The position numbers were made by a program, and so were the translations under genes. A DNA stretch of 64,000 nucleotides, taken from contig OZ220691.1 of the NCBI GenBank assembly GCA_965116475.1, positions 849,093 through 913,092 of the forward strand, read 5' to 3'. Of the stretch, positions 657 through 56,567 are shown piece by piece. The DNA comes from Gemmatimonadota bacterium (GTDB lineage Bacteria > Gemmatimonadota > Gemmatimonadetes > Palauibacterales > Palauibacteraceae). The notes beneath the pieces are model-generated. The model saw only the letters and a program-made list of their open reading frames with translations. It was not told where the DNA came from and ran no database searches. Each line of letters starts with the position of its first letter. The stretch's first letter is position 1.

Positions 657-1940
657 TCAGGCGGCGTCGGCTCGCTCCACGGCCAGGCCGCTCTCGCGCC
701 AGCGGCCGGCCACCCCGGCGGGCACGCGGGCCACGATGACCACGCACCCGGCTTCGTACGCGCGCTCCAGCACCTCCCCCTCCCGGTACGCCTCGGCGAG
801 TCGCGCGCCGTCGCTGGCGGGCAGGCTCACCCGCACTGTCTCGAGGCGGGCCCGCATCGCCGCCTGGAGCGCCTCGCGCAACGGCTGCAACCCGCCTCGC
901 TCCACGATCGAGGTCAGCACGTGCGGCCGGCCTTCCGCCGCCGCCCGCTCGCGGAGCGCCCGCTCCTCCTCGTGCGTGAGCCGGTCGATCTTGTTGAAGA
1001 CCTCGACCACCGGGCGGTCCGCCACGCCGGCCTCCGCCAGCACCCCCTCCACGGCCTCGCGCTGCGCGTCCCGGCTCGGCGATGAGGCGTCGATCACGTG
1101 CAGCAGGAGGTCGGCCTCGGCGAGTTCCTCCATCGTCGCGCGGAAGGATGCCACGAGATGATGCGGCAGCTTCCGGATGAACCCGACCGTGTCGGTGAGG
1201 AGGATCGGACCCGGACCTTCGAGATCGCAAACCCGGGTCGCCGAGTCCACCGTAGCGAACAGCCGGTCCTCGACGAAAACATCCGAGCCCGAGAGCGCGC
1301 GCAGGATGGAGGACTTCCCCGCGTTCGTGTAGCCCGTGAGCGCCACGGTGAACTGCTCGCTCCGCGCCCGGCGCTGGGTGACCCGCGCCCGTGCGATGTG
1401 GTCGAGCTTGCCCCGCAGCCGGGCCAGACGCCGGTCGATGAGCCGGCGGTCGGTCTCGATCTGCTGCTCGCCGGGCCCGCGCGCGCCGATGCCCCCGCCC
1501 TCCCGCGAGAGGTGGGTCCACATCCGCTTCAACCGCGTCCGCATGTACTGAAGCTGGGCGAGTTCGACCTGGAGCTTCGCTTCCGCCGTCCGGGCCCGGA
1601 GCGCGAAGATGTCGAGGATGAGCTCGGTCCGGTCCAGCGCCCGCACGCCGAGCGCCGCTTCGAGATTCGCCCCCTGCGCCGGCGTGAGTTCCTCGTCGAA
1701 GATGGCGAGCGTCGCGCCGTGCTCCCGGAGCGCCCGCCCCAGGCTTTCGACCTTCCCCTTGCCGATGAAGGTCGAGGCGTTCGGCCTGCGCAGCCGCTGC
1801 ACGACCGCGCCCCGGACATCGGCGCCCGCCGTTCCCGCAAGGCGGGCGAGTTCCTCGAGGTGTTCGTCCACCGTCTCCTGGGGCATGTCCGTCGGCGGCG
1901 CCCCCACGAGCACCGCGCGCTCCGCCGCACCGTCCGACAT
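657..1940 (-). CDS. hflX: GTPase HflX
   Basis: C-terminal 427 aa of the 773-aa ORF: G-domain motifs TGYTNAGKSS, DTVGF and NKID plus HflX N-domain (LVG...RTELILDIFALRARTAEAKLQVELAQLQY). Start taken at MSDGAAERAVLVG (ATG 1940..1938), which overlaps the rarA stop (TGATG). The upstream 346 codons of the ORF are an Arg/Gly-rich GC artefact. Confidence 0.9.
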   Translation of the reverse strand: MSDGAAERAVLVGAPPTDMPQETVDEHLEELARLAGTAGADVRGAVVQRLRRPNASTFIGKGKVESLGRALREHGATLAIFDEELTPAQGANLEAALGVRALDRTELILDIFALRARTAEAKLQVELAQLQYMRTRLKRMWTHLSREGGGIGARGPGEQQIETDRRLIDRRLARLRGKLDHIARARVTQRRARSEQFTVALTGYTNAGKSSILRALSGSDVFVEDRLFATVDSATRVCDLEGPGPILLTDTVGFIRKLPHHLVASFRATMEELAEADLLLHVIDASSPSRDAQREAVEGVLAEAGVADRPVVEVFNKIDRLTHEEERALRERAAAEGRPHVLTSIVERGGLQPLREALQAAMRARLETVRVSLPASDGARLAEAYREGEVLERAYEAGCVVIVARVPAGVAGRWRESGLAVERADAA

Positions 1941-3451
1941 CACTCTGTCGATCGATTCTCCTCCGTGGTCTCGCCGCCCGTTCCGGCGCCCGTTCCGGCG
2001 CCCGTTTCGGCCTCCGTTTCGGCCTCCGGGTCTCCCCGGGAGCCCGCTTCCTCTGCCGCCCGCGCCCGGCTGGCGCGAATCGCTTCGAGCCTGCGCCTCG
2101 CCTCCGCTTCCCAGCCGCGTCCCACCGGATCGTACCAGCGGCTTCCGCGCAGCGACTCCGGAAGGTAGGACTGGGCGGCCACGCCGTCTTCCTCGTCGTG
2201 ATCGTAGCGATACCCCGATCCGTACCCGAGTTCCTTCATGAGCCGCGTGGGCGCGTTCCGGATATGGAACGGGACGGGCTCGGCGGGCGTTTCGCGCGCC
2301 GAGCGGGCCGCGGCGCCGAAGGCCCGGTAGACCGCGTTCGATTTCGGGGCGATGGCCAGATAGGTCACCGCCTGCGCCAGGGCCAGATCGCCCTCGGGGC
2401 TGCCGAGAAAGTGGTACGCGTCCCGCGCCGCGATCGTGACCGCCAGCGCGCCGGGATCCGCGAGTCCGACATCCTCGGCGGCCATGCGGACGATGCGCCG
2501 GGCCAGGTACATGGGATCCTCGCCGCCGTCCAGCATCCGTGCGAGCCAGTAGAGCGCGGCGTCCGCGTCCGAGCCGCGGACGGCCTTGTGCAGGGCGGAG
2601 ATGAGGTTGAAGTGCTCCTCGCCCGACTTGTCGTAGCGCGCGAACCGCTTCTGCAGCGCCGCCGCCACGTGATCCTCGGAGATCGCGGGAACGCCGGCCA
2701 CGCCGGCCAGATCCGCCGCCGTCTCGAGCGCGTTGAGGGCGCGGCGGGCGTCCCCGTCCGATTCGGTCCCGAGCCGGGCGAGGGCGTCGTCGTCGATGGA
2801 GAGGCCCGTGGCTCCGAGCCCGCGCTCCCGGTCCCGCAGCGCGCGGGCACAGATCTCCGAGACGTCGTCCGGCGCGAGCGGCTCGAGGACGAAGACGCGG
2901 GTGCGGGAGAGGAGCGGGCCGACGACCTCGAAGCTGGGGTTCTCCGTCGTGGCCCCGATGAGGGTGATGGCGCCGCACTCGACGTGCGGGAGGAGGGCAT
3001 CCTGCTGCGCCCGGTTGAAGCGGTGGATCTCATCGACGAAGAGGACGGTGCCGCGGCCGGTGGCCGCGCGCCGCGCCTTCGCCTCCTCCAGGACGCGGCG
3101 GACGCGGGGGATCCCGTCGGTGACGGCGGAGAAGGGGACGAACGCGGCTTCCATCCGGCCGGCGAGCAGCCCGGCGAGGGTCGTCTTTCCGGTGCCCGGC
3201 GGACCCCAGAAGATGAGGCTCGGGACGCGTCCACTCTCGATGAGTTGGCGCAGGGGCCGGTCCGCGCCGACGAGTTTCGGCTGTCCGACGAACTCTTCCA
3301 GCGTCCGCGGCCGCATGCGGGCGGCGAGCGGCGAGTCGGCCAGGGCGGCATCCCGGGCCCGGGCGGCCCCCGGCTCGCCCGCGGGCGCGGGCTCGGCGGG
3401 CGGGGCGGCGCGCGCTTCCATGCCGGCGAACAGGCTCGGCTCGTCAGCCAT
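1940..3451 (-). CDS. rarA: replication-associated recombination protein A (AAA+ ATPase RarA/MgsA)
   Basis: Walker A GPPGTGKTT, Walker B LFVDEIHRFN, and the MgsA C-terminal tetramerisation region. Start chosen at MADEPSLF (ATG 3451..3449) rather than 3496, to limit overlap with the upstream gene. Confidence 0.85.
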   Translation of the reverse strand: MADEPSLFAGMEARAAPPAEPAPAGEPGAARARDAALADSPLAARMRPRTLEEFVGQPKLVGADRPLRQLIESGRVPSLIFWGPPGTGKTTLAGLLAGRMEAAFVPFSAVTDGIPRVRRVLEEAKARRAATGRGTVLFVDEIHRFNRAQQDALLPHVECGAITLIGATTENPSFEVVGPLLSRTRVFVLEPLAPDDVSEICARALRDRERGLGATGLSIDDDALARLGTESDGDARRALNALETAADLAGVAGVPAISEDHVAAALQKRFARYDKSGEEHFNLISALHKAVRGSDADAALYWLARMLDGGEDPMYLARRIVRMAAEDVGLADPGALAVTIAARDAYHFLGSPEGDLALAQAVTYLAIAPKSNAVYRAFGAAARSARETPAEPVPFHIRNAPTRLMKELGYGSGYRYDHDEEDGVAAQSYLPESLRGSRWYDPVGRGWEAEARRRLEAIRASRARAAEEAGSRGDPEAETEAETGAGTGAGTGGETTEENRSTE

Positions 3452-4823
3452 CGGCGCCGGACGGCCCGTTACCGGCTGCACCGGTCGGGGGCGCATCGGG
3501 GGGGCGCGACGCCTCCGCGAGCGCGCCGATCTCGATCAGCCGGCGAGCCTCTTCGAGGAGGGGCTCGCGCTCGTTGCGGCCGGGGTCCTCGATGACCTGT
3601 TCGAGCAGCTCGTCCAGCAGCAGCCGAACGAGCGGACCCGGCGACATGCCGAGTGCGAGGAGGTCGTCCCCGTTGACCGCGAGACGCGCCAGATCGAGCA
3701 CCGGGTCTTCTTCGCGCTCTTCCCGGACGCGCTCGAGGGTCGCCTCGAGGTAGCGCTCCGCCCGCGTCTCTCCGGCGGCGTGGGCGGCGGCGAAGTGCAG
3801 TTCGAACAGGTCCTCCCACGCGCCGCCGACCGCTGCGAGCCAGCGTCGATGCTCCGCCGCGGAGTCCAGCGGCCCGACGAAGGGGAGGTACAGCCGGACG
3901 AGCCGCGCGACGTAGCGCCGGTCCGCGTTGGAGAACTTGAGCCGCGAGAGCAGCGACTCGGCGGCTTCGGCCCGCCCGTCCGGTGTTTCGGACGCGGGCA
4001 CGAGCAGGCTCGCAAGGCGCACGTTCGCGGCGTGCGCCGGGGCCGCATCGACGGCGCCGAGCGCGGACCGCCACGCGTCGCCGTCGGCCACGAGCCCGAG
4101 CAGCTCCGGGTACCAGTGGCCCAGCGCCCCGCAGTCCGCGTAGAGCTCCAGCGCGGCCGAAGGCTTCGGGTCCGCCAGGACCTTGAGCAGCTCCTCGCGC
4201 ACGCGCTCGGCCGACAGCCCGGCCAGACCGCTCACGGCCTCCCGCATCGCTTCGTCGGTGCGCGCCTCCACCGCCCACTCGAATCGTCCCGCGAACCGGA
4301 AGCCGCGCAGCACGCGCAGGTAGTCCTCGCGGAAGCGCGCTTCGGGTTCGCCGACGGCGCGCAGGATCCCGTCTTCGATGTCCTCCGCGCCGTCCCACTC
4401 GTCGCGCACCTCGCCGGTGGCGGGCCGCCAGGCGATGGCGTTCGCCGTGAAATCCCGCCGGCTCAGATCCTCCTCGATGGAATCGGCGAAGGCGACCCGC
4501 GCGTGGCGGCCATCCGTCTCGACATCGCGCCGGAACGTCGTCACCTCGTAGGCGTGGTCCCCGTCGAGGACCGTCACGGTCCCGTGCGACACGCCGACCG
4601 GGACGGTCCGCGGAAAGAGCCGCATCACGTCCTCCGGCCGCGCAGCCGTCGTCAGGTCCCAGTCCGGCTCGGGCAGGTCGGGCGTCCCTCCGATCTGGGC
4701 GACGTAGGCGTCGCGGATCGAGCCGCCCACGGCCCAGGCCTCGAAACCCGCGGCCTCGAGCCGTTCCGCGGTACGGGAGAACCCGGGCGAGGGGGAGAAT
4801 CGGCCCGGATCGATCGCGCTCAC
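3444..4823 (-). CDS. tRNA nucleotidyltransferase / poly(A) polymerase family protein (CCA-adding-like)
   Basis: Pol-beta-like head GGSIRDAYV...DLTT and RRDFTANAIA motif typical of class II CCA/PAP enzymes; 459 aa. Confidence 0.8.
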   Translation of the reverse strand: MSAIDPGRFSPSPGFSRTAERLEAAGFEAWAVGGSIRDAYVAQIGGTPDLPEPDWDLTTAARPEDVMRLFPRTVPVGVSHGTVTVLDGDHAYEVTTFRRDVETDGRHARVAFADSIEEDLSRRDFTANAIAWRPATGEVRDEWDGAEDIEDGILRAVGEPEARFREDYLRVLRGFRFAGRFEWAVEARTDEAMREAVSGLAGLSAERVREELLKVLADPKPSAALELYADCGALGHWYPELLGLVADGDAWRSALGAVDAAPAHAANVRLASLLVPASETPDGRAEAAESLLSRLKFSNADRRYVARLVRLYLPFVGPLDSAAEHRRWLAAVGGAWEDLFELHFAAAHAAGETRAERYLEATLERVREEREEDPVLDLARLAVNGDDLLALGMSPGPLVRLLLDELLEQVIEDPGRNEREPLLEEARRLIEIGALAEASRPPDAPPTGAAGNGPSGADG

Positions 4824-5990: not shown

Positions 5991-8693
5991 TCAAGCACCC
6001 GACAGGGCGGGCACCCGCTCGGAAGCCCAGGCCCAGGCCGCTCCGAGTCCGTCTTCCGTTCGCGACGGGTCGCCCACGCCCCCCTGCGCGAAGCGCGCGC
6101 CCCCGCCGCCGCCGGAACCCGTCGCCCGGCTCGACACACGGACGAGGTCGCCCGCCTTCACGCCCAGCCGGATGAGGTCGTCCGACACGACGGAGATGAA
6201 CGCATGGCGGTCCTCGTCCGGGAACACGACATGGACGACAGCGGCGCCCGACCCCATTCCGCCGCGCAGGCGATCGCCGAGCGCGCCGAGGTCCGTGCCC
6301 GCGGGCACCTCCAGGCGCCCCGACACGAAGCGCGCCCCGTTCGCGTCCGCCGCCCCCGTCGCTCCCGCTCCTGCGAGCAGCGTCTCCAGTTGTCGGTCCG
6401 CGGCAGCTCCCCTCCGCCCCCGAACTTCTTCGGCGAGCGCGTCGCGTTCTTCGAGGAGCCGGTCCATGCGCGCGGTCAGATCCGTCGGTTGGCAGCGCAG
6501 CCGCGCGGCCAGTTCGGCGAGCAGCCGGTCGCGCTCCAGTTCCCGCCGGTAGGCCCCCTGCCCCGTCACAGCCTCGATACGCCGGATCCCGGCCGCGACG
6601 CCCGTCTCGGCCACGATCCGGAACGTCCCGATCTGGCCCGTCGTGCGGACGTGCGTGCCGCCGCACAGCTCCAGGCTGAGGCCCGGAACCTCGATCACGC
6701 GCACGATGTCCCCGTACTTCTCTCCGAACAGGGCCATCGCCCCGGCCGCGATCGCCTCGTCGTAGTCCCGCTGCGACGCGTCGACGTCGTGGTTGCCGAG
6801 GATCGCTTCCGTCACCTCCGCTTCGATGTCCGCCCGTTCCTCCGGCGTCAGCGGTCCCCGGTGGCTGAAATCGAAGCGCAGCCGGTCCGGGGCGACGAGC
6901 GAGCCGGCCTGCTGCACGTGCTCGCCCAGCCGGTTGCGGAGCGCGGCGTGCAACAGGTGCGTCGCCGTGTGATTCCGCTCCGTCTCGTGCCGCGCCGGAT
7001 CCACCTGCGCGAGCACCGTGTCCTCGACCCCCTCGGCTTCTCCCCCGGCTTCGGGCAGCGAGCCGTCAGCGAGCACCCCCGCGACCACGGTCCGGCCGTC
7101 GTCGTCCCAGACCTCGGAGATGTCCACCGCCCACCCGTCTCCCGCGACCCGGCCGGTGTCGGAGACCTGTCCCCCGCTCTCCAGGTAGAAGGGATTCCGT
7201 GCGAGCAGGAACGCGTGCCGCCCATCGCCGGACCAGCGCCGGCAGTCCGTTTCGACTTCGAGGTCCCCGTAGCCCACGAATTTCTGTGGTCGGGGGCCGA
7301 GGGAAGCGGTCGCCTGGATCGAACCGACGAGCCCGCCCGTAAGAGTCGCCACCGCGTCGATGGGCGCCACTTTGCCACCCTCGCGCGAACGGGCGCGCTG
7401 GGCTTCCAGGGCCTCGCCGAAGCCCTCCCAGTCCACGCCGTAGCCGCGTTCGCGGGCGATGAGGCCTGTGAGGTCCTCGGGGATGCCGTACGTGTCCTTG
7501 AGCTTGAACGCGACGTCGCCCGCGACCGTGCCCGAACCTCCCTCCGGCATCGCGCGGTCGATCTCGCGCATGCCGCCCTCGATGGTCGACAGGAAGAGTT
7601 CCTCCTCCGCCCGCGTCGTCGAGAGGAGGTGTTCCCGCCTCGCCTCCAGTTCGGGGAAGGTGGCCGACATGCGGTCCGCGACGACGCCCACGAGGTCGTG
7701 CAGGAGCGGGTCGCGCCGCCCGAGCAGCCAGTAGTGCCGCACCGCCCGGCGCAGGATCCGGCGCAGCACGTACCCCCGCTTCTCGTTCGAGGGGAAGACG
7801 CCGTCGGCGAGCAGGAACGCCACGGCCCGGGCGTGATCCGCCAGCACGCGGAAGGCGACGCCGTCCTCCCAGTCTTCCGGCGCTCTCGAGTACTCGATCC
7901 CGAGTCCCTCCTCCGCCGCCTCGATGATCGGGAGGAAAAGGTCCGTGTGGTAGTTCGTGCCCACGCCCTGCAGCAGCGCCGCGATCCGTTCGAGTCCGGC
8001 GCCGGTGTCGATCGAGGGCGCGGGGAGCGGCGTGTCCGTCCCGTCCGGTGCGCGGTCGAACTGCATGAACACGAGATTCCAGAACTCGATGATCGCGTCC
8101 GCCTCGCCCGCCGCCTCGAACTGCGCGTCGGTGATGCGGTCATCGCGCTCCGCGCGCAGGTCGTAGTGCAGTTCCGAGCACGGACCGCACGGACCGGTGT
8201 CGCCCATCTGCCAGAAGTTGTCCTTGTCCCCCATGCGCCGGATCCGCGATTCCGGGATCGAGGTCCGTTTCAGCCAGAGGTCGAAGGCGTCGTCGTCGTC
8301 GTGGTGGACCGTGGCCCACAGGCGTTCGGGCTCGAGGCCGAGGTCTCCGGTCACCCACTCCCAGGCGAAGTCGATCGCGTCGCGCTTGAAGTAGTCGCCG
8401 AAGGAGAAGTTCCCGAGCATCTCGAAGAAGGTGTGGTGGCGCGCGGTTCGCCCCACCTCCTCGAGGTCGTTGTGCTTGCCGCTGACGCGGAGACATTTCT
8501 GGGACGTGACGGCGCGAGGGGGGTGCGGGCGTTCCGTCTCTCCGGTGAAGATGCCCTTGAACTGCACCATCCCGGCGTTCGTGAACATGAGGGTCGGGTC
8601 ATCCGCGGGGACGAGCGGGCCGCTGGGCCGATGCTCGTGCCCCTGCCGCTCGAAACAGGAGATGAAACTCCGCCGGAGTTCGTCCGCCTTCAT
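5991..8693 (-). CDS. alaS: alanine--tRNA ligase
   Basis: 900 aa. Class II aaRS core (FTNAGMVQFK, HHTFFEMLGNFSFGDYFK), editing domain HxxxH (HTATHLLH...) and C-terminal DHHA1 domain. Confidence 0.95.
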   Translation of the reverse strand: MKADELRRSFISCFERQGHEHRPSGPLVPADDPTLMFTNAGMVQFKGIFTGETERPHPPRAVTSQKCLRVSGKHNDLEEVGRTARHHTFFEMLGNFSFGDYFKRDAIDFAWEWVTGDLGLEPERLWATVHHDDDDAFDLWLKRTSIPESRIRRMGDKDNFWQMGDTGPCGPCSELHYDLRAERDDRITDAQFEAAGEADAIIEFWNLVFMQFDRAPDGTDTPLPAPSIDTGAGLERIAALLQGVGTNYHTDLFLPIIEAAEEGLGIEYSRAPEDWEDGVAFRVLADHARAVAFLLADGVFPSNEKRGYVLRRILRRAVRHYWLLGRRDPLLHDLVGVVADRMSATFPELEARREHLLSTTRAEEELFLSTIEGGMREIDRAMPEGGSGTVAGDVAFKLKDTYGIPEDLTGLIARERGYGVDWEGFGEALEAQRARSREGGKVAPIDAVATLTGGLVGSIQATASLGPRPQKFVGYGDLEVETDCRRWSGDGRHAFLLARNPFYLESGGQVSDTGRVAGDGWAVDISEVWDDDGRTVVAGVLADGSLPEAGGEAEGVEDTVLAQVDPARHETERNHTATHLLHAALRNRLGEHVQQAGSLVAPDRLRFDFSHRGPLTPEERADIEAEVTEAILGNHDVDASQRDYDEAIAAGAMALFGEKYGDIVRVIEVPGLSLELCGGTHVRTTGQIGTFRIVAETGVAAGIRRIEAVTGQGAYRRELERDRLLAELAARLRCQPTDLTARMDRLLEERDALAEEVRGRRGAAADRQLETLLAGAGATGAADANGARFVSGRLEVPAGTDLGALGDRLRGGMGSGAAVVHVVFPDEDRHAFISVVSDDLIRLGVKAGDLVRVSSRATGSGGGGGARFAQGGVGDPSRTEDGLGAAWAWASERVPALSGA

Positions 8694-9363: not shown

Positions 9364-10464
<1,101 letters not shown>

Positions 10465-10538
10465 TTCACGCTCTCCCGATTTCCGAGGGGTCCGCCGGGC
10501 CGATGACGGGGAGTCGATCACCCGCCGCGGCGGAGGTT

Positions 10539-10711: not shown

Positions 10712-11098
10712 TCAGGGGCCGGGGGCGAGGTCGATTCCGCAGGCGGGACAGAAGGCTTCGCCGCCGACCAGGACTTCGGGGCATGCCGGGCATGTCCGGG
10801 GGGATGCCGTGGGCTCCCGGGGCTCGGGGGCGGGAGCCTTCGTGGGTCCACGGGCGGCGGCGTCCCGGGCGTCGATGGCCGCGCGCTCAAGGCGGGCCCG
10901 CGTGGCCTGGTACTCCTCTTCCTGGAGCTTGCCCGTTCGGTACTCCAGCTCGAGATCGCGGAGCGCCTCGATGGCGGCGTCGCGGCGCTCCGCAGCGCCG
11001 AGCGACGCGCCCGTGTCTTCGCCGGACCGGATCGCGGCCCAGATGATCGTGGCCAGCAGCACCGCGAGGATGACGCCGAAGAGGATGAATCCGGTCAC
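10712..11098 (-). CDS. small membrane protein with C-terminal zinc ribbon
   Basis: N-terminal TM helix (FILFGVILAVLLATIIWAAI), a charged coiled segment, then CPACPEV...CPAC, a four-Cys zinc ribbon. Its start overlaps the stop of the upstream TIGR00725 gene. Confidence 0.6.
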   Translation of the reverse strand: MTGFILFGVILAVLLATIIWAAIRSGEDTGASLGAAERRDAAIEALRDLELEYRTGKLQEEEYQATRARLERAAIDARDAAARGPTKAPAPEPREPTASPRTCPACPEVLVGGEAFCPACGIDLAPGP

Positions 11099-11616
11099 TC
11101 GTTCACCTCCCGTGGCGAACGCCGCTTCCGACGCGGACGCCCCTCCCGCCGATCCGCCGCGAGTTCGAGGGCCCGCGCCGCCGCCCCCGCCGCGTCCGCG
11201 GCCGCCTCGTCAACGACGCTTTCGGGCAGCGATGACGCGAGTCCGATTACGGGCACACCGAACTTCCGGCAGAACGCCGCCTCGCTGAGCGTGCCCCACT
11301 CGCCGGCGATCGCGACCACCGCCTCGGAGGCCCGCGCCACGATGACGTTCCGCGCCTCTCCGAGCCCGGTCGGGATCGGGATGTTGACCCCGTCCGCCGC
11401 CGCGCCCGGATCGCCGCCGGGCAGGATCCCCAGCACGGTCCCCCCTTCCGACGAGGCTCCGTCCGCCGCCGCCCGCATGACGCCGCCCATGCCGCCGCAG
11501 ACGACGATGGCCCCGGCGCGGGCGAGGGCCGCCCCCACCGCGTGAGCCAGGCCCGCTTCCGCCGGTGCCGCGTCTCCCGAGCCGATGACGCCGATCCGCA
11601 GCGGCCGCAAGCTCAC
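11095..11616 (-). CDS. TIGR00725 family protein (SLOG/Rossmann-like, LOG/DprA-related)
   Basis: LRIGVIGSG...AIVVCGGMGGVMRAAADGA...GILP...ARNVIVARASEAVVAIAGEWGTLSEAAFCRKFGVPVIGL matches the TIGR00725 consensus. Start is GTG at 11616..11614 (VSLRPLRIGVIG), which overlaps the dtd stop as GTGA. The upstream 100 codons of the ORF are Gly/Arg-rich artefact. Confidence 0.75.
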   Translation of the reverse strand: MSLRPLRIGVIGSGDAAPAEAGLAHAVGAALARAGAIVVCGGMGGVMRAAADGASSEGGTVLGILPGGDPGAAADGVNIPIPTGLGEARNVIVARASEAVVAIAGEWGTLSEAAFCRKFGVPVIGLASSLPESVVDEAAADAAGAAARALELAADRREGRPRRKRRSPREVNE

Positions 11617-12047
11617 CGCTCCAGTTGGAGGGTGACGGGGCCGTCGTTGACCAGCTCCACCTCCATCATCGCGCCGAACTCCCCCTCGGCGACCTCGCCG
11701 CCCCTTCGGCACAGCTCCACGAAACGGCCGTAGAGCGCCCGGGCCGCCTCCGGCCGCGCCGCCCCCGTGAAGGAAGGGCGCCGTCCGCGCGACGCATCCC
11801 CGTACAGGGTGAACTGGGACACGACCAGAAGCGCCGCCCCGACCTCCCGCGCCGAGCGGTTCATGCGGCCTTCCGCGTCCGCGAACAGACGCAGGTTCCA
11901 GAGCTTGTCCGCCATCCACGCCATCTTCGCCTCGGAATCATCCGGCGCGAAACCCGCGAGGACGGCCAGCCCGGGGCCGATCGCTCCCACGACCTCGCCT
12001 CCGACCCGGACGCGGGCCTCACTGACTCGCTGAATCACGACTCGCAA
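11613..12047 (-). CDS. dtd: D-aminoacyl-tRNA deacylase
   Basis: RVVIQRVSEARVRV...VSQFTLYGD is the DTD signature. TTG start at 12047..12045 gives the canonical M-R-V-V-I-Q-R-V N-terminus. Confidence 0.85.
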   Translation of the reverse strand: MRVVIQRVSEARVRVGGEVVGAIGPGLAVLAGFAPDDSEAKMAWMADKLWNLRLFADAEGRMNRSAREVGAALLVVSQFTLYGDASRGRRPSFTGAARPEAARALYGRFVELCRRGGEVAEGEFGAMMEVELVNDGPVTLQLER

Positions 12048-12907
12048 TTGCGTCGTCCCTTGCCGACCCCGGCCGCTCGCGGCTGACCGCTTTTTCCACA
12101 GCACGTCAAAATCGGTGAACGACGAAAAGATGCGACAGCGCTCGGTCCCGGGCGACTCCGCTGGCGACCGATCTGGCGGTCCGTTTCAAAATCCACGTTT
12201 TTTGGACAAAATACCCACAATTTATGGACATCATTTTTTTGAAAAAACGAGAAGCTTGATTCGAAGCGATGAGGCCTTCGGAGCGGCGTCATGCGCTGGC
12301 TGGGAATCGGATAGGACGAAGCGGATGAAGGGGAGCCAGCCCGCAGGCACCCGGCATCCTCGTCCGGGGCTCCGGCGGCGATCCACTTCAGGGGTCCGTC
12401 AACGATCCGCGATCCCGGCGAGGGGGCGCCCCCACGGGGCACTCTGGAAGATCGCGAACAGGCGAACAGGTATGGGTAGATGCACTCAGCCCCTGGCCAC
12501 CCGAAGGTGTCAGGGGCTGAGCAAGGAAGCTTGTTTACGGCCAACTACCGCCCGGTCCTGGTAGCTTGCGCGGTCTTCCAGAACCTCTCCGCGAGCCTGG
12601 TACCGTCTGTCCGACCAGCTGTGCTCGATCCCTCTTCCCTCGGTCGCCTCGTTCCGTCGCCGGAACTCCGCTTCCTCAGGCCCGGGACTCGCGCCCCGGT
12701 TTCGCGATCTCGCGTCGGGCAACTCGCGGTGCGGTCATCGGCCTCGACCTCCGGTCGGTCGGTGCCGCCTCCCTTAGCACGCCCTGATTCTAAAAAGATT
12801 TTTTTGGGTCGTCAACCTCAAACAGCGGCGAGTCGTATTTTTTTCAAAAATTGATTGATTGAATGGCCATTCCCCGTGCCGATTCGCGGGAGAAAACCGG
12901 ATTTTGT

Positions 12908-14911
12908 TCAGCGGCCGTGCCAGAGGTCGGTGGGGGCGGCGTCGATGCGCGAGCCGAATCGTTCGACGTGGGCGAGGAGGCGGTTGAGGAGGGCCTCCGG
13001 GGGCAGCGTTCGGCGGAGGCCGGCGACGGTCGCGATGATGACCAGGCGTTCGCGGGCCCGGGAGAGAGCGACGTTGAGCAGGCGGGGGAAGTCCCGGTTC
13101 CGGCGCTCGTCGAGGAACCAGCTGCGGCCGGGAGGCGCGTCCACGGTGTCGATGAGGACGAGGCGCTTCTCGCGCCCCTGGAAGCGGTGGATCGTGCTCA
13201 CCTCCAGTTCGGCGGGGGCGGCGCGACCGAGCCTGCGGCGGACGAGGTCGTTCAGGTGACGGGTCTGGGCGCGGTAGGGAGAGACCACCGCGATGTCGTC
13301 GATTCCGTCGCGGGCCGCCGAGCCGAGAAAGTCCGCGACGGCCTCGGCGTGAGCCCGGTTGCGCCGCGATCCATCCACGCGTTCGACCCGCGGATCGAGT
13401 TCGCTCGTGTCGAGCACGGTGAGGGCGGCCCGCTCCGTGGCCCGGCCCGTGGCCCGGCCGGCCGCGCGCTCCGCGATCTCCGGTGCGTCCCGGAGCCGCC
13501 CGCCGTAGAAGAACTCACTCACCAGTTCGCGGATGTCGGGCGCCATCCGGTATTGGAGGTCGAGCATCGCGCACAGCCCGTCGTTGGGTGAGGGCAGCAT
13601 GTCGTCGGCTTCACCCACCACGCCGGCTTCGCGGAACAGGTCGGTGCGCAGCCAGCGCATGGCCGCCGGGGCGGTGCTCGACACGACCGGGGGAAGCTGC
13701 TGGAAATCGCCGACGGCGATCGCGGGGCCCGCGACCCTCGAGGCAGCGAGCGCCACGTAGGGAAGCGGCGCCGTGCTCGCCTCGTCGATGAGCAGGGACT
13801 CGAACCTCAGCTCGCGGAGTTCCTCCCGAATCGAGAGCCGGGCGAAGGTGGTGAGGACGATGTGCGCCTCCTCCAGCGCGCGTTCCGCCTGGCGCGCGAT
13901 CTCGAGCATGACGCGGCCCAGGGCGCGCGCGGACTCCGCATCGCCCCGCGAGCGCGCGAGCGAGAGCAGGCGTCCGGCCCGGGCGTAGGGGTTGAGGGCG
14001 GGAGCCCCCTCGCGCGTCGCGGCCGGCGGGCGGGTGCGCAGCCGCCCCTCATGCTCCGCGAGCGTCCGGTCCACGCCGCCGGCCCCGCCCTCGATCCGGC
14101 GCGCCAGCGCCGCGCCCAGGTCGATGCGCGAGTCGGGCGCGGCGCCGAGGTCGAACCCCACGCGAATGATCCGGTCGCTGTCGAGCATGGCCGGATCCGC
14201 GATGGAGGCGAGGCGGCGCGCGATCTCGTCCACGGCCCCGTTGGTCGTCGCCGCGACGAGCACCCGGCCGCGGAGCGCGAGTTCAAGCGCCGCGCGCGCC
14301 ACGAGGCGGGACTTGCCGGTCCCGGGCGGACCCCAGACGAGTTGGGCGCTGCTGCCCAGCACCCGTTCCAGGGCGTCGCGCTGCGGCTCGTTCAGGTCAG
14401 CGGAAGAGTCGAGACGCGGGGACTCCCGGCCGAGGCGCGGCGGCAGGCGGCCGAAGGCACCGAGCACGGTGTCCGGGAAGAAGTCCCCCGGCTCGTGCCC
14501 CACCTCGGCCAGCCGCGTGGAGAGTTCGCGGAGGAGCCACGTGGGATCGAACTCGAGCTCGGCGCCGTCGAGGCGCTCTCCGAGCCACTCCGGGCTCACG
14601 GCCTGCAGGAGCCCGAGCGTGCGGTCGAAACGGTGGACGACACCGAGCGCGTCGCGCCCACCCGCGTGGATGCGCACGCGGTCCTCCGCGCGGATGTCGT
14701 ATGTTCCCCCCGCGATCTGGAAGGCGTAGCGATAGCCGGTCCCCACCTCTCCCCGCAGGCGTCCGGAGAGCGCCGGGATCGGCCCGTCCAGACGGCGGCG
14801 GGAGAGGTCGGCCGCGACCGCCTCGATCTCCTCCTCGATCGCCACGCGGAGATCCGCCAACAGAAGCCACAACGACTCCCGGGAGTCAGGAGCTTGCATG
14901 CCGGACCACAC
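12908..14911 (-). CDS. Upf1/DNA2-like superfamily I helicase (AAA_11 + AAA_12) with a 170-aa N-terminal domain of unknown function
   Basis: Walker A GPPGTGKS, motif II LLIDEAS, motif III DFQQLPPV, motif V/VI VSTIHRFQGREKRLVLID and LLNVALSRARERLVII. 667 aa. An alternative start is M5 at 14899. Confidence 0.8.
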   Translation of the reverse strand: MWSGMQAPDSRESLWLLLADLRVAIEEEIEAVAADLSRRRLDGPIPALSGRLRGEVGTGYRYAFQIAGGTYDIRAEDRVRIHAGGRDALGVVHRFDRTLGLLQAVSPEWLGERLDGAELEFDPTWLLRELSTRLAEVGHEPGDFFPDTVLGAFGRLPPRLGRESPRLDSSADLNEPQRDALERVLGSSAQLVWGPPGTGKSRLVARAALELALRGRVLVAATTNGAVDEIARRLASIADPAMLDSDRIIRVGFDLGAAPDSRIDLGAALARRIEGGAGGVDRTLAEHEGRLRTRPPAATREGAPALNPYARAGRLLSLARSRGDAESARALGRVMLEIARQAERALEEAHIVLTTFARLSIREELRELRFESLLIDEASTAPLPYVALAASRVAGPAIAVGDFQQLPPVVSSTAPAAMRWLRTDLFREAGVVGEADDMLPSPNDGLCAMLDLQYRMAPDIRELVSEFFYGGRLRDAPEIAERAAGRATGRATERAALTVLDTSELDPRVERVDGSRRNRAHAEAVADFLGSAARDGIDDIAVVSPYRAQTRHLNDLVRRRLGRAAPAELEVSTIHRFQGREKRLVLIDTVDAPPGRSWFLDERRNRDFPRLLNVALSRARERLVIIATVAGLRRTLPPEALLNRLLAHVERFGSRIDAAPTDLWHGR

Positions 14912-22300: not shown

Positions 22301-23318
22301 CTCCGGGGTCGACGGGCTCGAAGCGGCCCGACCCATCGTTGAGGTAGAATTCGTCCGGATCCGCGAGTTCGAAGCGCAGCACGCCTTCGCCCTCGCGCAC
22401 GAGCCGGTAGTGCTCGTCGAACGGGGGGTGGATCACGAACCCATCGCCGACGGGTTCGGCGATCTCGCGCGGCCTTCGTTCCGCGGGGCTGAAGAGGTCG
22501 TCCCCCTGGACCGTCTTGTAGTTGGCGAAGTACGCGTCGAGGTCTTCATCCCCGTCGATGTCGGCGAGGGCGAGCGTGCTGCTCCCCCATTCCCCCTCGA
22601 ACCCCGGCGCCGCTTCCTCGAAGACGCCGCTCCCGTCGTTCAGGAGGAGGGCGTTCGTCCCTCCGTGCACGGCTACGAAGAGGTCCAGGTCGCCGTCGCC
22701 GTCCGCATCGGCGAGGACGGCGCCCCGCGACAGCCGGTCGCCGAGCCCGGCCCCGGAACGCTCCGTCACGTCCTCGAAGCGCCAGCCCCCCAGATTGCGG
22801 TAGAGGACGTTGGGCCGGTCCAGCATGCAGAGGTAGAGGTCGACCCAGCCGTCACCGTCCACATCTCCGAGCGCCACGCCGACGCCGTGGATGAGCGTAC
22901 GATTCGCCAGCCGGGCCGCGCGCGACACGGTGGGGACCGCCTCGATGCCCGTTCTCCGCGGCGCCAGCGAGGTGAAGCCGCCTCCGGACTCACCCTCGAA
23001 CGACAGGAGGCGCGCGCGCGTTCCGTCCTCCTCGACCCAGTCGATCGAGATGGACGGGACAGAGGCATCGCAGGCGGCGAAGAGGCCGGCGGCGCAGGCT
23101 GCGGCGGAAAAAACGCGGAAGCGGGTTTTGCCGCGGGCGGCTATTCGCCGTCTCCGCGGAAGACGGACCGCATCCCCTCCACCGCGTCTCGGGCCCCTTC
23201 CGCCGCGCGCGCGAAGACCGCGGCGAGTTCCCGTTTCCCGGTGCCGACGAGCGGGATGTCGAAGGTGAAGTGGACGGCCACGCCGGCGGGGCGAACGTTC
23301 TCCTTCGGATCGGTCCAC
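19362..23318 (-). CDS. giant CRTAC1-family protein, two tandem FG-GAP + ASPIC/UnbV modules
   Basis: 1318-aa ORF with two FG-GAP/ASPIC modules. Signal-like KTRFRVFSAAACAAGLFAAC lies 63 codons inside the ORF. No in-frame ATG/GTG/TTG precedes it after the 23318 ATG, so the start is uncertain. Confidence 0.75.
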   Translation of the reverse strand: MDRSEGERSPRRRGRPLHLRHPARRHRETGTRRGLRARGGRGPRRGGGDAVRLPRRRRIAARGKTRFRVFSAAACAAGLFAACDASVPSISIDWVEEDGTRARLLSFEGESGGGFTSLAPRRTGIEAVPTVSRAARLANRTLIHGVGVALGDVDGDGWVDLYLCMLDRPNVLYRNLGGWRFEDVTERSGAGLGDRLSRGAVLADADGDGDLDLFVAVHGGTNALLLNDGSGVFEEAAPGFEGEWGSSTLALADIDGDEDLDAYFANYKTVQGDDLFSPAERRPREIAEPVGDGFVIHPPFDEHYRLVREGEGVLRFELADPDEFYLNDGSGRFEPVDPGGGTFRDADGEPVTDVPREWGLVARFFDADDDGDSDLFVANDLGSRDGFWLNDGGIFTAASGLSFRTESTSSMGVDFSDIDGDGDTDFVTTEMLSLDSVRRREQVALGAAAWTPPGGHAARVSADRNTLQLNRGDGTWAETARAAGLDASEWTWGAMFLDVDLDGYEDLLITNGHGWDPLDGDTQEALRTRRIQVDWREELGVFPPLRLRNLAFRNLGDGAFVPMTREWGYGTEPDVSHGIAAADFDRDGDRDVVITRLDEPPLMLRNDAGRARVALRVLGEGRNTQAIGARVVLAGTAAAGSVRPDQTRQVTSGGMYLSGSDPGLTFAIGDGEAAEATITWPSGRSRTVRVLANHAYEVRPPADGGPGPDIGPGSGAALFAGSEAVGRHGESAFDELARQPLVPLELSRGGPGAAWIDADADGDPDLLVGAGAGGRAQLAVNEAGRLMDPVPIGAPAVGDHTSIIALPTAGRPVIIAGVSSWEALSPADLDAIPPLARLDAGPAPAVPPSRHATGPLAAADVDGDGDLDLFAGARATPGAYPLPADSRLLLAEGGDWVVDADASETLRQVGLVSGAVFSDVDDDGDPDLLLALEWGAVRLLENDGGRFRDATDAWGLGADTGRWNGIATGDFNGDGRPDLAVTAWGANTGRFASPERPVGVVASDFDGNGLVDLIEFETGADGVRRPVRDLLALGTTLPFLRREAPTFEAFARSSVDDLLGTGRTGLYRTSAVTLLHTVFLNVGGRFEPRPLPAAAQLAPAFGVAVADFDRDGREDLFLAQNYFATPRGLGRHDAGRGAVLLGDGAGGFTVLDAARSGIEVYGDARAAAVADFDADGRWDLAVGQNGAETLIFRGQGGAPGLRVRLSMGGAFPGGASAGGASADGASPGIAGARLRPRYADGSSGPAREIQLGSGYWSFHGFVQVLGRAADIRALTVRWPDGIEETFPVEAGVVEGGVVEAGTPGSGAPEVTLRRGEGS

Positions 23319-54730: not shown

Positions 54731-56567
<1,837 letters not shown>

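Follow-up and report, generated by a model that had tools for sequence, protein, structure and literature searches.

Several large structured non-coding RNAs (ncRNAs) of bacteria, among them the raiA motif RNA, OLE, ROOL, GOLLD and HEARO, are orphans, and similar RNAs described in the past have proved to be ribozymes, riboswitches, cores of ribonucleoproteins (RNPs) or self-assembling RNA cages. Transcription units that fire towards or within replication origins, such as Escherichia coli mioC, Caulobacter hemE Ps and ColE1 RNA II, form a second group of related systems, and they produce mRNAs or a primer that hybridises at the origin through its 3' part. To our knowledge, a structured-RNA gene that invariably precedes a cluster of DnaA boxes and is transcribed towards it has been described neither for oriC nor for the DnaA-box clusters (DBCs), datA or DARS. 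Such clusters outside the origin are represented by the DBCs of Bacillus subtilis (PMC3245932) and by datA/DARS of E. coli (PMC4585315). Here we analyse an 860-nucleotide (nt) non-coding gap between dtd and a superfamily 1 (SF1) helicase gene, at positions 12048-12907 of a 64,000-nt stretch (hereafter the window) of contig OZ220691.1 (assembly GCA_965116475.1, forward-strand positions 849,093 to 913,092). The source is a Gemmatimonadota bacterium of the Palauibacterales, a marine group formerly called PAUC43f that is uncultured and globally abundant (PMC10469786). Comparison with its homologues indicates that a stand-alone gene of a new structured-ncRNA family probably lies in the gap, followed by a DNA module predicted to bind DnaA.

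The predicted RNA shares with raiA, OLE, ROOL, GOLLD and HEARO its length, its many covarying helices, its GNRA and UUCG caps and its invariant unpaired blocks; like them, it is an orphan with a promoter of its own, and was found by comparative genomics alone. Unlike these RNAs, it accompanies a DnaA-box array rather than phage or membrane-protein genes; in Rfam 15 it matches none of the five in sequence or structure, and it is shorter than OLE, ROOL and GOLLD. The module beyond it resembles DBCs, datA/DARS and oriC in having four to six TTATCCACA-like boxes, some of them helically phased, between genes and beside an AT-rich element. It differs in that its boxes are putative and no dnaA or dnaN lies near the gap. 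As with mioC, hemE Ps and RNA II, a strong promoter ~530 nt upstream of the AT element and the boxes points towards them, whereas the transcript here would be a conserved folded RNA ending in a stem-loop, with an unconserved spacer beyond it.

A conserved, covarying RNA predicted in the gap

The predicted RNA gene lies on the minus strand at 12479..12782 and is 304 nt long, running from GCGUGC to GAGUGCAUC, as judged from homologues, covariation and folding. A search with nhmmer found a single copy in the window (E=2e-92) and one copy per locus in 35 fetched loci. Thirty distinct homologues of 250-309 nt were collected from Palauibacterales-like Gemmatimonadota, in genomes whose helicases are 46-100% identical to that of the window; one metagenome scan using the pattern of the 3' hairpin had added about 22 copies before duplicates were merged. 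Identities of the RNA to six relatives (L068, L069, L070, L071, L072 and L074) were 99, 92, 84, 85, 79 and 77%, respectively, compared with 85, 86, 72, 74, 67 and 63% for the 600 nt at the 3' end of the helicase gene. The RNA is thus more conserved than the flanking coding DNA, supporting that it is under selection.

Alignment of seven gaps revealed four conserved blocks and one neutral block, and in the sense of the minus strand the layout is promoter, RNA, spacer, AT element with DnaA-box module, and then dtd. The spacer (12251..12478) is unconserved, with 44-60% identity and a length of 138-251 nt in relatives. It contains the palindrome GGGGGCGCCCCC (12422-12433), which a first-pass annotation of this gap had singled out; the palindrome is indeed perfect, yet it is missing from the relatives in the seven-gap alignment. 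A derivation of the spacer as an inverted copy of the RNA was discarded, the local alignment score being 25 against a shuffle mean of 20 and maximum of 30.

Folding of 10 aligned sequences with RNAalifold yielded 70 pairs, of which 29 show compensatory double changes. In a model of 83 pairs over 30 sequences, 85.5% of the cells pair, compared with 32-46% when the 3' partners were slid by 1-3 columns; 45 pairs show double changes, against 14-20 in the slid versions, and the covariation score reached 0.339, a value of 0.118 being the highest after sliding. On four of five measures, none of 500 shuffles equalled the observed value. Alignment of orthologous gaps, a check proposed in the first-pass annotation, has in this way returned covariation and, as described below, a difference in presence and absence. 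The window's RNA has a minimum free energy of -156.9 kcal/mol (z=-5.0), compared with z=-2.35 for the opposite strand. Moreover, the model pairs comprise 268 G·U cells versus 98 A·C cells, and the hairpin tips are GCGA, GAAA, GCAA, GUAA (GNRA) or UUCG; this G·U excess and these tips place the RNA on the minus strand, as they are signatures specific to RNA that the complement would not retain.

The RNA folds into a branched body of several helices. In the GGGAGG/CUUCCU helix that closes it (helix 2), an invariant GGAGG faces a CCUCC-like strand varying between C and U, with just G-C to G-U changes; this closing helix is plausible but not proven. Two invariant blocks, both self-complementary, occur in 30/30 sequences: GGUACC (12599..12604, minus strand), which sits in a large internal loop and is left unpaired by the consensus model, and GCGC (12568..12571, minus strand), in the loop of the hairpin UCUGG-AAGACCGCGCAAGCUA-CCAGG, whose enclosing stem (helix 11) covaries. 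Scanning all column pairs for extra or pseudoknot pairs returned just 2-bp stacks resembling phylogenetic correlation. A small open reading frame (ORF) after the Shine-Dalgarno-like GGAGG was also considered and rejected, no start codon being conserved there in the alignment.

Subtypes of the RNA differ through insertions and deletions of whole domains, and the core is kept in all of them. A domain of ~55 nt is confined to Palauibacter-type sequences, and the L003-type RNA has an insertion of ~25 nt. The latter, UCUGUCUGAAGGCGGGUCGAAUCC, is seen in L003 (~8350-8375), L108, L104, L134, L130 and L119 and includes the T-loop-like GGGUCGAAUCC; ARAGORN detected no tRNA or transfer-messenger RNA (tmRNA) in this subtype. 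Of the 57 matches to the 3'-hairpin pattern in the metagenome, 33 had no nhmmer match. A wider superfamily with a common 3' module was considered for these 33 and rejected: on inspection they proved to be terminator-like or coding hairpins unrelated to the RNA, sharing neither upstream motifs nor an Rfam family. Nine soil-metagenome contigs (L096, L097, L106, L107, L120, L121, L123, L125 and L131) carry a near-identical hairpin, AAGCCCCCGCTGCCCGCCACGCCGGGGGCTGAGTGCATCG, inside a coding region, which is a chance match to the pattern, unrelated to the RNA.

The conservation pattern bears directly on another earlier suggestion, that an inserted element has decayed in the gap, and more broadly on any remnant of a gene or mobile element in which hairpins arose by chance. 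Locally lower GC content and the 14-nt AT direct repeats that flank the RNA and spacer would be in line with such a remnant. We nevertheless reject this reading because of the conservation of the RNA above the level of flanking coding DNA and its compensatory changes. In addition, the gap has no protein similarity and no match in plasmid, phage or viral collections, and the AT repeats, unlike the decaying spacer between them, stay conserved in deep lineages.

Promoter, AT elements and 3' end

A sigma-70 promoter, TTGACG-17-TAGAAT, was located on the minus strand at 12815..12787, with its -35 hexamer TTGACG at 12810..12815 and its -10 hexamer TAGAAT at 12787..12792. It has 10/12 matches to the consensus and is the sole such site in 2 kb, the same scan giving a mean of 0.2 sites in shuffled sequences. 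The 17-nt promoter spacer consists of an A-tract followed by a T-tract, and the RNA begins 6-7 nt past the -10; a promoter of this type would start minus-strand transcription near 12782. Among 27 loci the -35 reads TTGAC in 23 and TTGCx in four, its sixth base being variable. In the -10, written as TAnnnT, the T, the A and the final T are invariant or nearly so in 30 sequences, and many lineages have the extended form TGTATAAT. The architecture of an AT-rich upstream element, a -35 and a TAnnnT -10 was found in 27/27 loci.

The upstream AT element (TTTTTGAAAAAAA) lies about -57 to -70 relative to the predicted RNA start, at 12837..12850 of the minus strand (TTTTTGAAAAAAAT in the sense of the RNA), and TTTTTNAAAAAA is present ~20 nt upstream of the -35 in 27/27 homologous loci. 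A second copy of the element at 12233..12246 directly adjoins the DnaA-box array, and the two form a direct repeat with 93% identity. The 14-nt element, ATTTTTTT[C/G]AAAAA, hence occurs twice, 604 nt apart, once before the RNA promoter and once next to the DnaA boxes. Most lineages examined conserve the two copies, and the upstream one is kept in 27/27 loci, with partial decay of the DNA in between. The A/T runs that the first-pass annotation had described as unusual for this genome are all in place: ATTTTTTTCAAAAA (12837-12850, plus strand), aaaaagattttttt (12793-12806), which belongs to the -35/-10 spacer, and ATTTTTTTGAAAAA (12233-12246). They are functional-looking elements rather than generic unusual composition. 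The DnaA-box array beside the third of these runs had gone unnoticed.

The 3' end of the predicted RNA is a GC-rich terminal stem-loop, CUCAGCCCCUG-AC-ACC-UUCG-GGU-GGC-CAGGGGCUGAG (12485..12521, minus strand), followed by the tail UGCAUC. This is the strong hairpin reported earlier, with perfect 11-bp arms (12485-12495 and 12511-12521) and a nested CACC-UUCG-GGUG tip. The stem is present in all sequences; its helix (helix 12, 16 pairs) pairs in 96% of cells and includes 7 pairs with double changes, and the tip is UUCG or GCAA in 23/30 sequences. Most sequences, including the window copy, have a UGCAUC or UACAUC tail instead of a U-tract. In locus L079, six U residues directly follow the hairpin, which makes it a canonical intrinsic terminator there, and we therefore take the hairpin to mark the 3' end of the transcript. 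The structured ncRNA that the first-pass annotation listed among its candidates thus appears to be correct but incomplete, since the RNA is encoded by the minus strand and covers just 304 nt of the gap (12782..12479), with the hairpin flagged there as its 3' stem-loop.

Gene context and relation to dtd

The order helicase, RNA, dtd was found in 19 loci, in all of which the RNA lies upstream of dtd and in the same orientation. This arrangement would suit a long regulated leader of dtd, as had been proposed, that is, a riboswitch-like element or attenuator governing in cis the read-through into dtd-SLOG-recA. Several points do weigh against a fully independent RNA gene, and some of them favour such a leader. 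The 3' hairpin is without a U-tract in the window copy and in most lineages, so that read-through towards dtd is possible, and a promoter scan returned no sigma-70 consensus promoter for dtd itself; some cis contribution to transcription of the dtd operon is therefore possible. Furthermore, the covariation counts rest on sequence-based MAFFT alignments, the structure having been derived from the same alignment; helices 4, 8 and 11 pair in just 69-73% of cells; and helices 1-2, which comprise the closing helix P1 and the GUG/CAU pairing of the 5' and 3' ends, show no double compensatory changes, being either invariant or changed just from G-C to G-U. Finally, the trans-acting role and the dimer considered below are parts of a model that we infer.

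A leader nonetheless seems a poor explanation. The RNA start lies ~730 nt from dtd and the 3' hairpin ~430 nt from the dtd start, of which ~230 nt are unconserved and variable in length, and no conserved alternative terminator/antiterminator pairing was found. In L092, L110 and L129 the RNA, with the same promoter, is located between an M1-peptidase gene and hypothetical/TonB-C/JAB genes, which are unrelated to dtd, and L079 has a full terminator. Conversely, L077/L078 have the same operon layout without the element. There is no Rfam riboswitch match either, and the RNA has neither an expression platform adjoining an ORF nor a consistent class of downstream gene, the marks of a riboswitch. Because of the unconserved spacer, the distance, the L079 terminator and the contexts of L092, L110 and L129, we favour an independent RNA gene.

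Exact-protein look-ups revealed a conserved synteny of a divergent pyridoxal phosphate (PLP)-decarboxylase gene, helicase, gap, dtd, SLOG, hypothetical, recA, recX and alaS. In relatives' loci the gap is kept at 700-1000 nt where the helicase is 54-90% identical to that of the window, a retention far beyond chance. In L077/L078, whose helicase is 52% identical, the helicase-dtd distance is just 13 nt and the RNA/DnaA-box island is absent, and despite this absence the SLOG, recA, recX and alaS synteny is intact (L077/L078, 5974-5988). The whole island is therefore a presence/absence character.

Composition and flanking genes agree with the first-pass annotation. The two ends of the gap have a GC content of just 0.52-0.57, compared with 0.71 for the whole window. 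As for the absence of a convincing ORF, third-position GC content reaches 0.78 in the best frame within the gap (12060-12900), against 0.85-0.97 in the flanking genes, and a Pfam search with the six longest ORFs of the gap gave nothing at E<=0.01. The two flanking genes are what they had been called. One is dtd (D-Tyr-tRNA deacylase; 11613..12047, minus strand; PF02580, E=4.5e-56), with a TTG start at 12047..12045, at the head of the gene string dtd-SLOG-hyp-recA-recX. The other is the SF1 helicase gene (AAA_11/AAA_12 in Pfam; 12908..14911, minus strand), the stop codon of which forms the gap boundary. Hundreds of close homologues of the helicase exist, and their sources name them Candidatus Palauibacter or Gemmatimonadota. 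A genome scan with a helicase alignment, based on the Walker-A pattern WGPPGTGK, gave at least four Gemmatimonadota loci among the matches listed, three of them useful.

Some details of gene calling concern the neighbours. The mechanical ORF of the SLOG/LDcluster4 gene (11095-11919, minus strand) over-extends into dtd, and its real start is probably at ~11616. The start of the helicase is ambiguous, public calls ranging from 644 to 694 aa versus 667 aa for the longest ORF here. Further to the dtd side of the island, genes for RarA/MgsA (1940-3496), a CCA-adding/poly(A) polymerase-family protein (3444-4823) and RecA (9364-10521) all lie on the minus strand. Functions in replication, repair and tRNA quality are in this way loosely grouped near the DnaA-box cluster.

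Comparison with known RNA families

The comparison with Rfam that had been suggested for this gap was carried out with Rfam 15 (4227 covariance models) and gave nothing inside 12048-12907 at E<=10. The same collection gave nothing in the RNA of six homologous loci, nor in L086 and L092, the two most divergent subtypes, when each was searched separately under the most permissive filters. ARAGORN found 0 tRNA/tmRNA genes in the window and 10 homologous loci, the plasmid, phage and viral collections gave no match to the RNA, and no description of it was found in the literature on Gemmatimonadota ncRNA or origin-linked RNA. Since none of these sources provided a match, we conclude that the RNA is a new, previously undescribed family of marine Gemmatimonadota (Palauibacterales and relatives), as far as sampled.

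A universal RNA (RNase P RNA, tmRNA, 6S RNA or signal recognition particle (SRP) RNA) so divergent that the Rfam models miss it would share the size of 250-309 nt, single copy, strong promoter and pairing of the 5' and 3' ends, all of which recall housekeeping RNAs. We judge this highly improbable. No such model matched at E<=10 with relaxed filters, either in the window copy or in homologues of three other subtypes, and the element is missing at this position in the L077/L078 lineage. For RNase P RNA, neither RF00010 nor RF00011 matched at E<=10, and the P4-type GAGGAAAGUCC and the ACAGAA...CCGGCUUA motif are absent from the sequence. For tmRNA, there is no tag ORF, no T-arm/CCA end, no Rfam match and no ARAGORN call. 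For 6S RNA, RF00013 did not match and the body is branched, unlike a rod with a central bubble. Rfam and ARAGORN thus agree with the first reading by eye, which had seen no hallmarks of tmRNA, RNase P or SRP RNA; the weak resemblance to SRP domain IV mentioned there does not hold, as the string in question, AAGGAAGC, is on the wrong strand.

Two further resemblances were set aside. The RNA begins with GUGC and has AGC at the foot of its 3' hairpin, reminiscent of the 5' end and domain V of a group II intron, respectively; yet it lacks an Intron_gpII match in Rfam, a domain VI and a host gene, and is served by a promoter of its own. A hairpin loop of the RNA, AGCGCAACCGACC, resembles the segment UGGUGCAACCGGCC of the aptamer of the c-di-GMP-II riboswitch (RF01786); this was the best Rfam score, at chance level, with 16 bits against a gathering threshold of 53.5 and 49 model positions deleted.

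The sole Rfam match in the window is a thiamine pyrophosphate (TPP) riboswitch at 56.5 kb (RF00059, 59.1 bits; 56469-56567, minus strand), directly upstream of the ThiC radical-SAM gene thiC (54731-56419, minus strand), an ordinary, known arrangement. The pair agrees with the description of Palauibacterales as thiamine producers (PMC10469786).

The DnaA-box module

Downstream of the RNA, DnaA boxes were counted by their mismatches to TTATCCACA/TTGTCCACA. The module extends over 12246..12092, just upstream of dtd, and its array (12189..12231) consists of 9-mers 10-12 nt apart: ATGTCCATA (12231..12223, minus strand, 2 mismatches), ATACCCACA (12211-12219, plus strand, 2 mismatches), TTGTCCAAA (12209..12201, minus strand, 1 mismatch) and AAATCCACG (12189-12197, plus strand, 3 mismatches). 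A further box with 1 mismatch, TTTTCCACA (12092-12100, plus strand), reads TGTGGAAAA in the sense of the RNA and dtd and is conserved in the four closest loci, L068-L071. In the conserved unit as a whole, one or two such further boxes follow about 60-100 nt past the array. In the window, 5 boxes with at most 2 mismatches fall within 300 nt, against a background of ~0.5, and this bin is one of two 300-nt bins with at least 5 boxes in the 64 kb. The other hot spot, at 28.75-29.05 kb, lies inside a gene for a 1103-aa Sortilin/BNR protein and was dismissed as chance, its boxes having 2 mismatches. Between the array and the last box of the module, the block GCATCTTT (minus-strand sense, 12126-12133) is conserved in all Palauibacter-type loci and echoes the 3' tail of the RNA, GCAUCU.

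The array of the window is more degenerate than those of homologous loci, where boxes with 0-1 mismatch are often 11 nt apart. Such boxes occur 110-400 nt (mostly 150-300) past the RNA in 24 of the 26 loci for which downstream sequence was available: 22 loci have two to four of them and two have one, the remaining two having 2-mismatch boxes only. L092, for instance, has perfect boxes TGTGGATAA downstream of the RNA. Comparable boxes upstream of the RNA were seen in one lineage only. Among 15 lineages printed for comparison, the AT element precedes the array in most and is clearly TTTTTNAAAAA in 11, at a distance of 3-8 nt in most lineages. The array itself usually has two or three boxes (three in 6/15) in one orientation, 10-13 nt apart. 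About 55-65 nt beyond it, a TTATCCACG-like box is found in 10/15 lineages, and in 8 of these a TGTGGATT-like box follows 3-5 nt on. RNA and module are thus found together in 26/26 loci, in two unrelated gene contexts. The downstream module most likely binds DnaA, and it could serve as an origin, as a titration site or as a roadblock to read-through.

Relation to the replication origin

We regard it as a tentative possibility, short of an even chance, that the DnaA-box cluster is oriC. A DnaA-box cluster, one of the marks of an origin, is present in the window; its boxes are phased ~11 nt apart and adjoin the AT element, and the module persists in both gene contexts. Over the first 12.9 kb cumulative G-C declines; it is flat to 23 kb and rises to 50 kb. 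Similarly, 8/8 called genes at 1.9-14.9 kb are on the minus strand and 15/20 at 14.9-50.4 kb on the plus strand, and the gap is the largest non-coding stretch near this switch of orientation (14.9 kb). The pattern of orientation and skew over 1.9-50 kb resembles a replication origin and is not decisive in a 64-kb window.

Other features speak against an origin. The skew minimum over these 64 kb is a plateau, with the global minimum at 23,038 and a local one at ~12,900; the skew largely follows the coding strand, and gene orientation is mixed past 50 kb. Neither the window nor the second gene context contains dnaA, dnaN, gyrB, parAB, gidAB or rpmH/rnpA; this check covered the called genes of the window (with Pfam on all but five short ones) and the second context, and such neighbours are frequent at origins, not obligatory. 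The AT element has just 13-14 nt, and DnaA-trios were not recognised by eye, no formal search having been made. Moreover, clusters of DnaA boxes are known away from origins, six of them outside oriC in B. subtilis (PMC3245932).

A stronger version holds that the array and the AT element are oriC or part of it, and that the RNA gene is functionally part of the origin. Strong transcription towards the AT element and boxes would then help or gate unwinding, or the RNA would act on initiation. The co-occurrence of RNA and module in every locus with downstream sequence favours this version, and against an RNA II-like primer mechanism stands the spacer between RNA and boxes, variable both in length and in sequence. 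The literature searched gave no description of a comparable structured RNA linked to the origin of a bacterial chromosome, and we know of none. Taken together, we consider such an origin-coupled RNA unlikely. The same holds for the idea that RNA gene and DnaA/AT module are one functional unit at a Palauibacterales-like oriC, with the folded RNA taking part in initiation or reporting on it, to which we likewise give a low probability. If there is a coupling, it could consist of transcription-coupled unwinding, of DnaA acting as a roadblock or read-through regulator, or of the RNA binding initiation factors.

Possible function and significance

Under the favoured reading, a stand-alone RNA gene followed by a DnaA-binding module, the 304-nt product would fold into a multi-helix body and end in the stem-loop 12521..12485 with its UGCAUC tail. 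It would be made as a discrete, probably abundant transcript with the predicted start and ends. As a folded molecule it may act in trans, as an RNP scaffold, as a binder of a ligand or protein, or as a self-associating RNA. The unpaired, self-complementary GGUACC and GCGC are likely contact surfaces in such a model, through which tertiary contacts, a protein partner or homodimerisation might be accommodated.

Bacterial RNAs of at least 250 nt with such a density of covarying helices and with such invariant loops are uncommon, and we know of no RNA biology described for Palauibacterales. The coordinates of promoter, RNA and boxes are usable for annotating dozens of public metagenome-assembled genomes. 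If the array proves to be oriC, the origin of this lineage would be located away from dnaA. In any case, the fixed partnership of RNA and DnaA boxes offers a testable link between a structured RNA and binding sites of the replication initiator.

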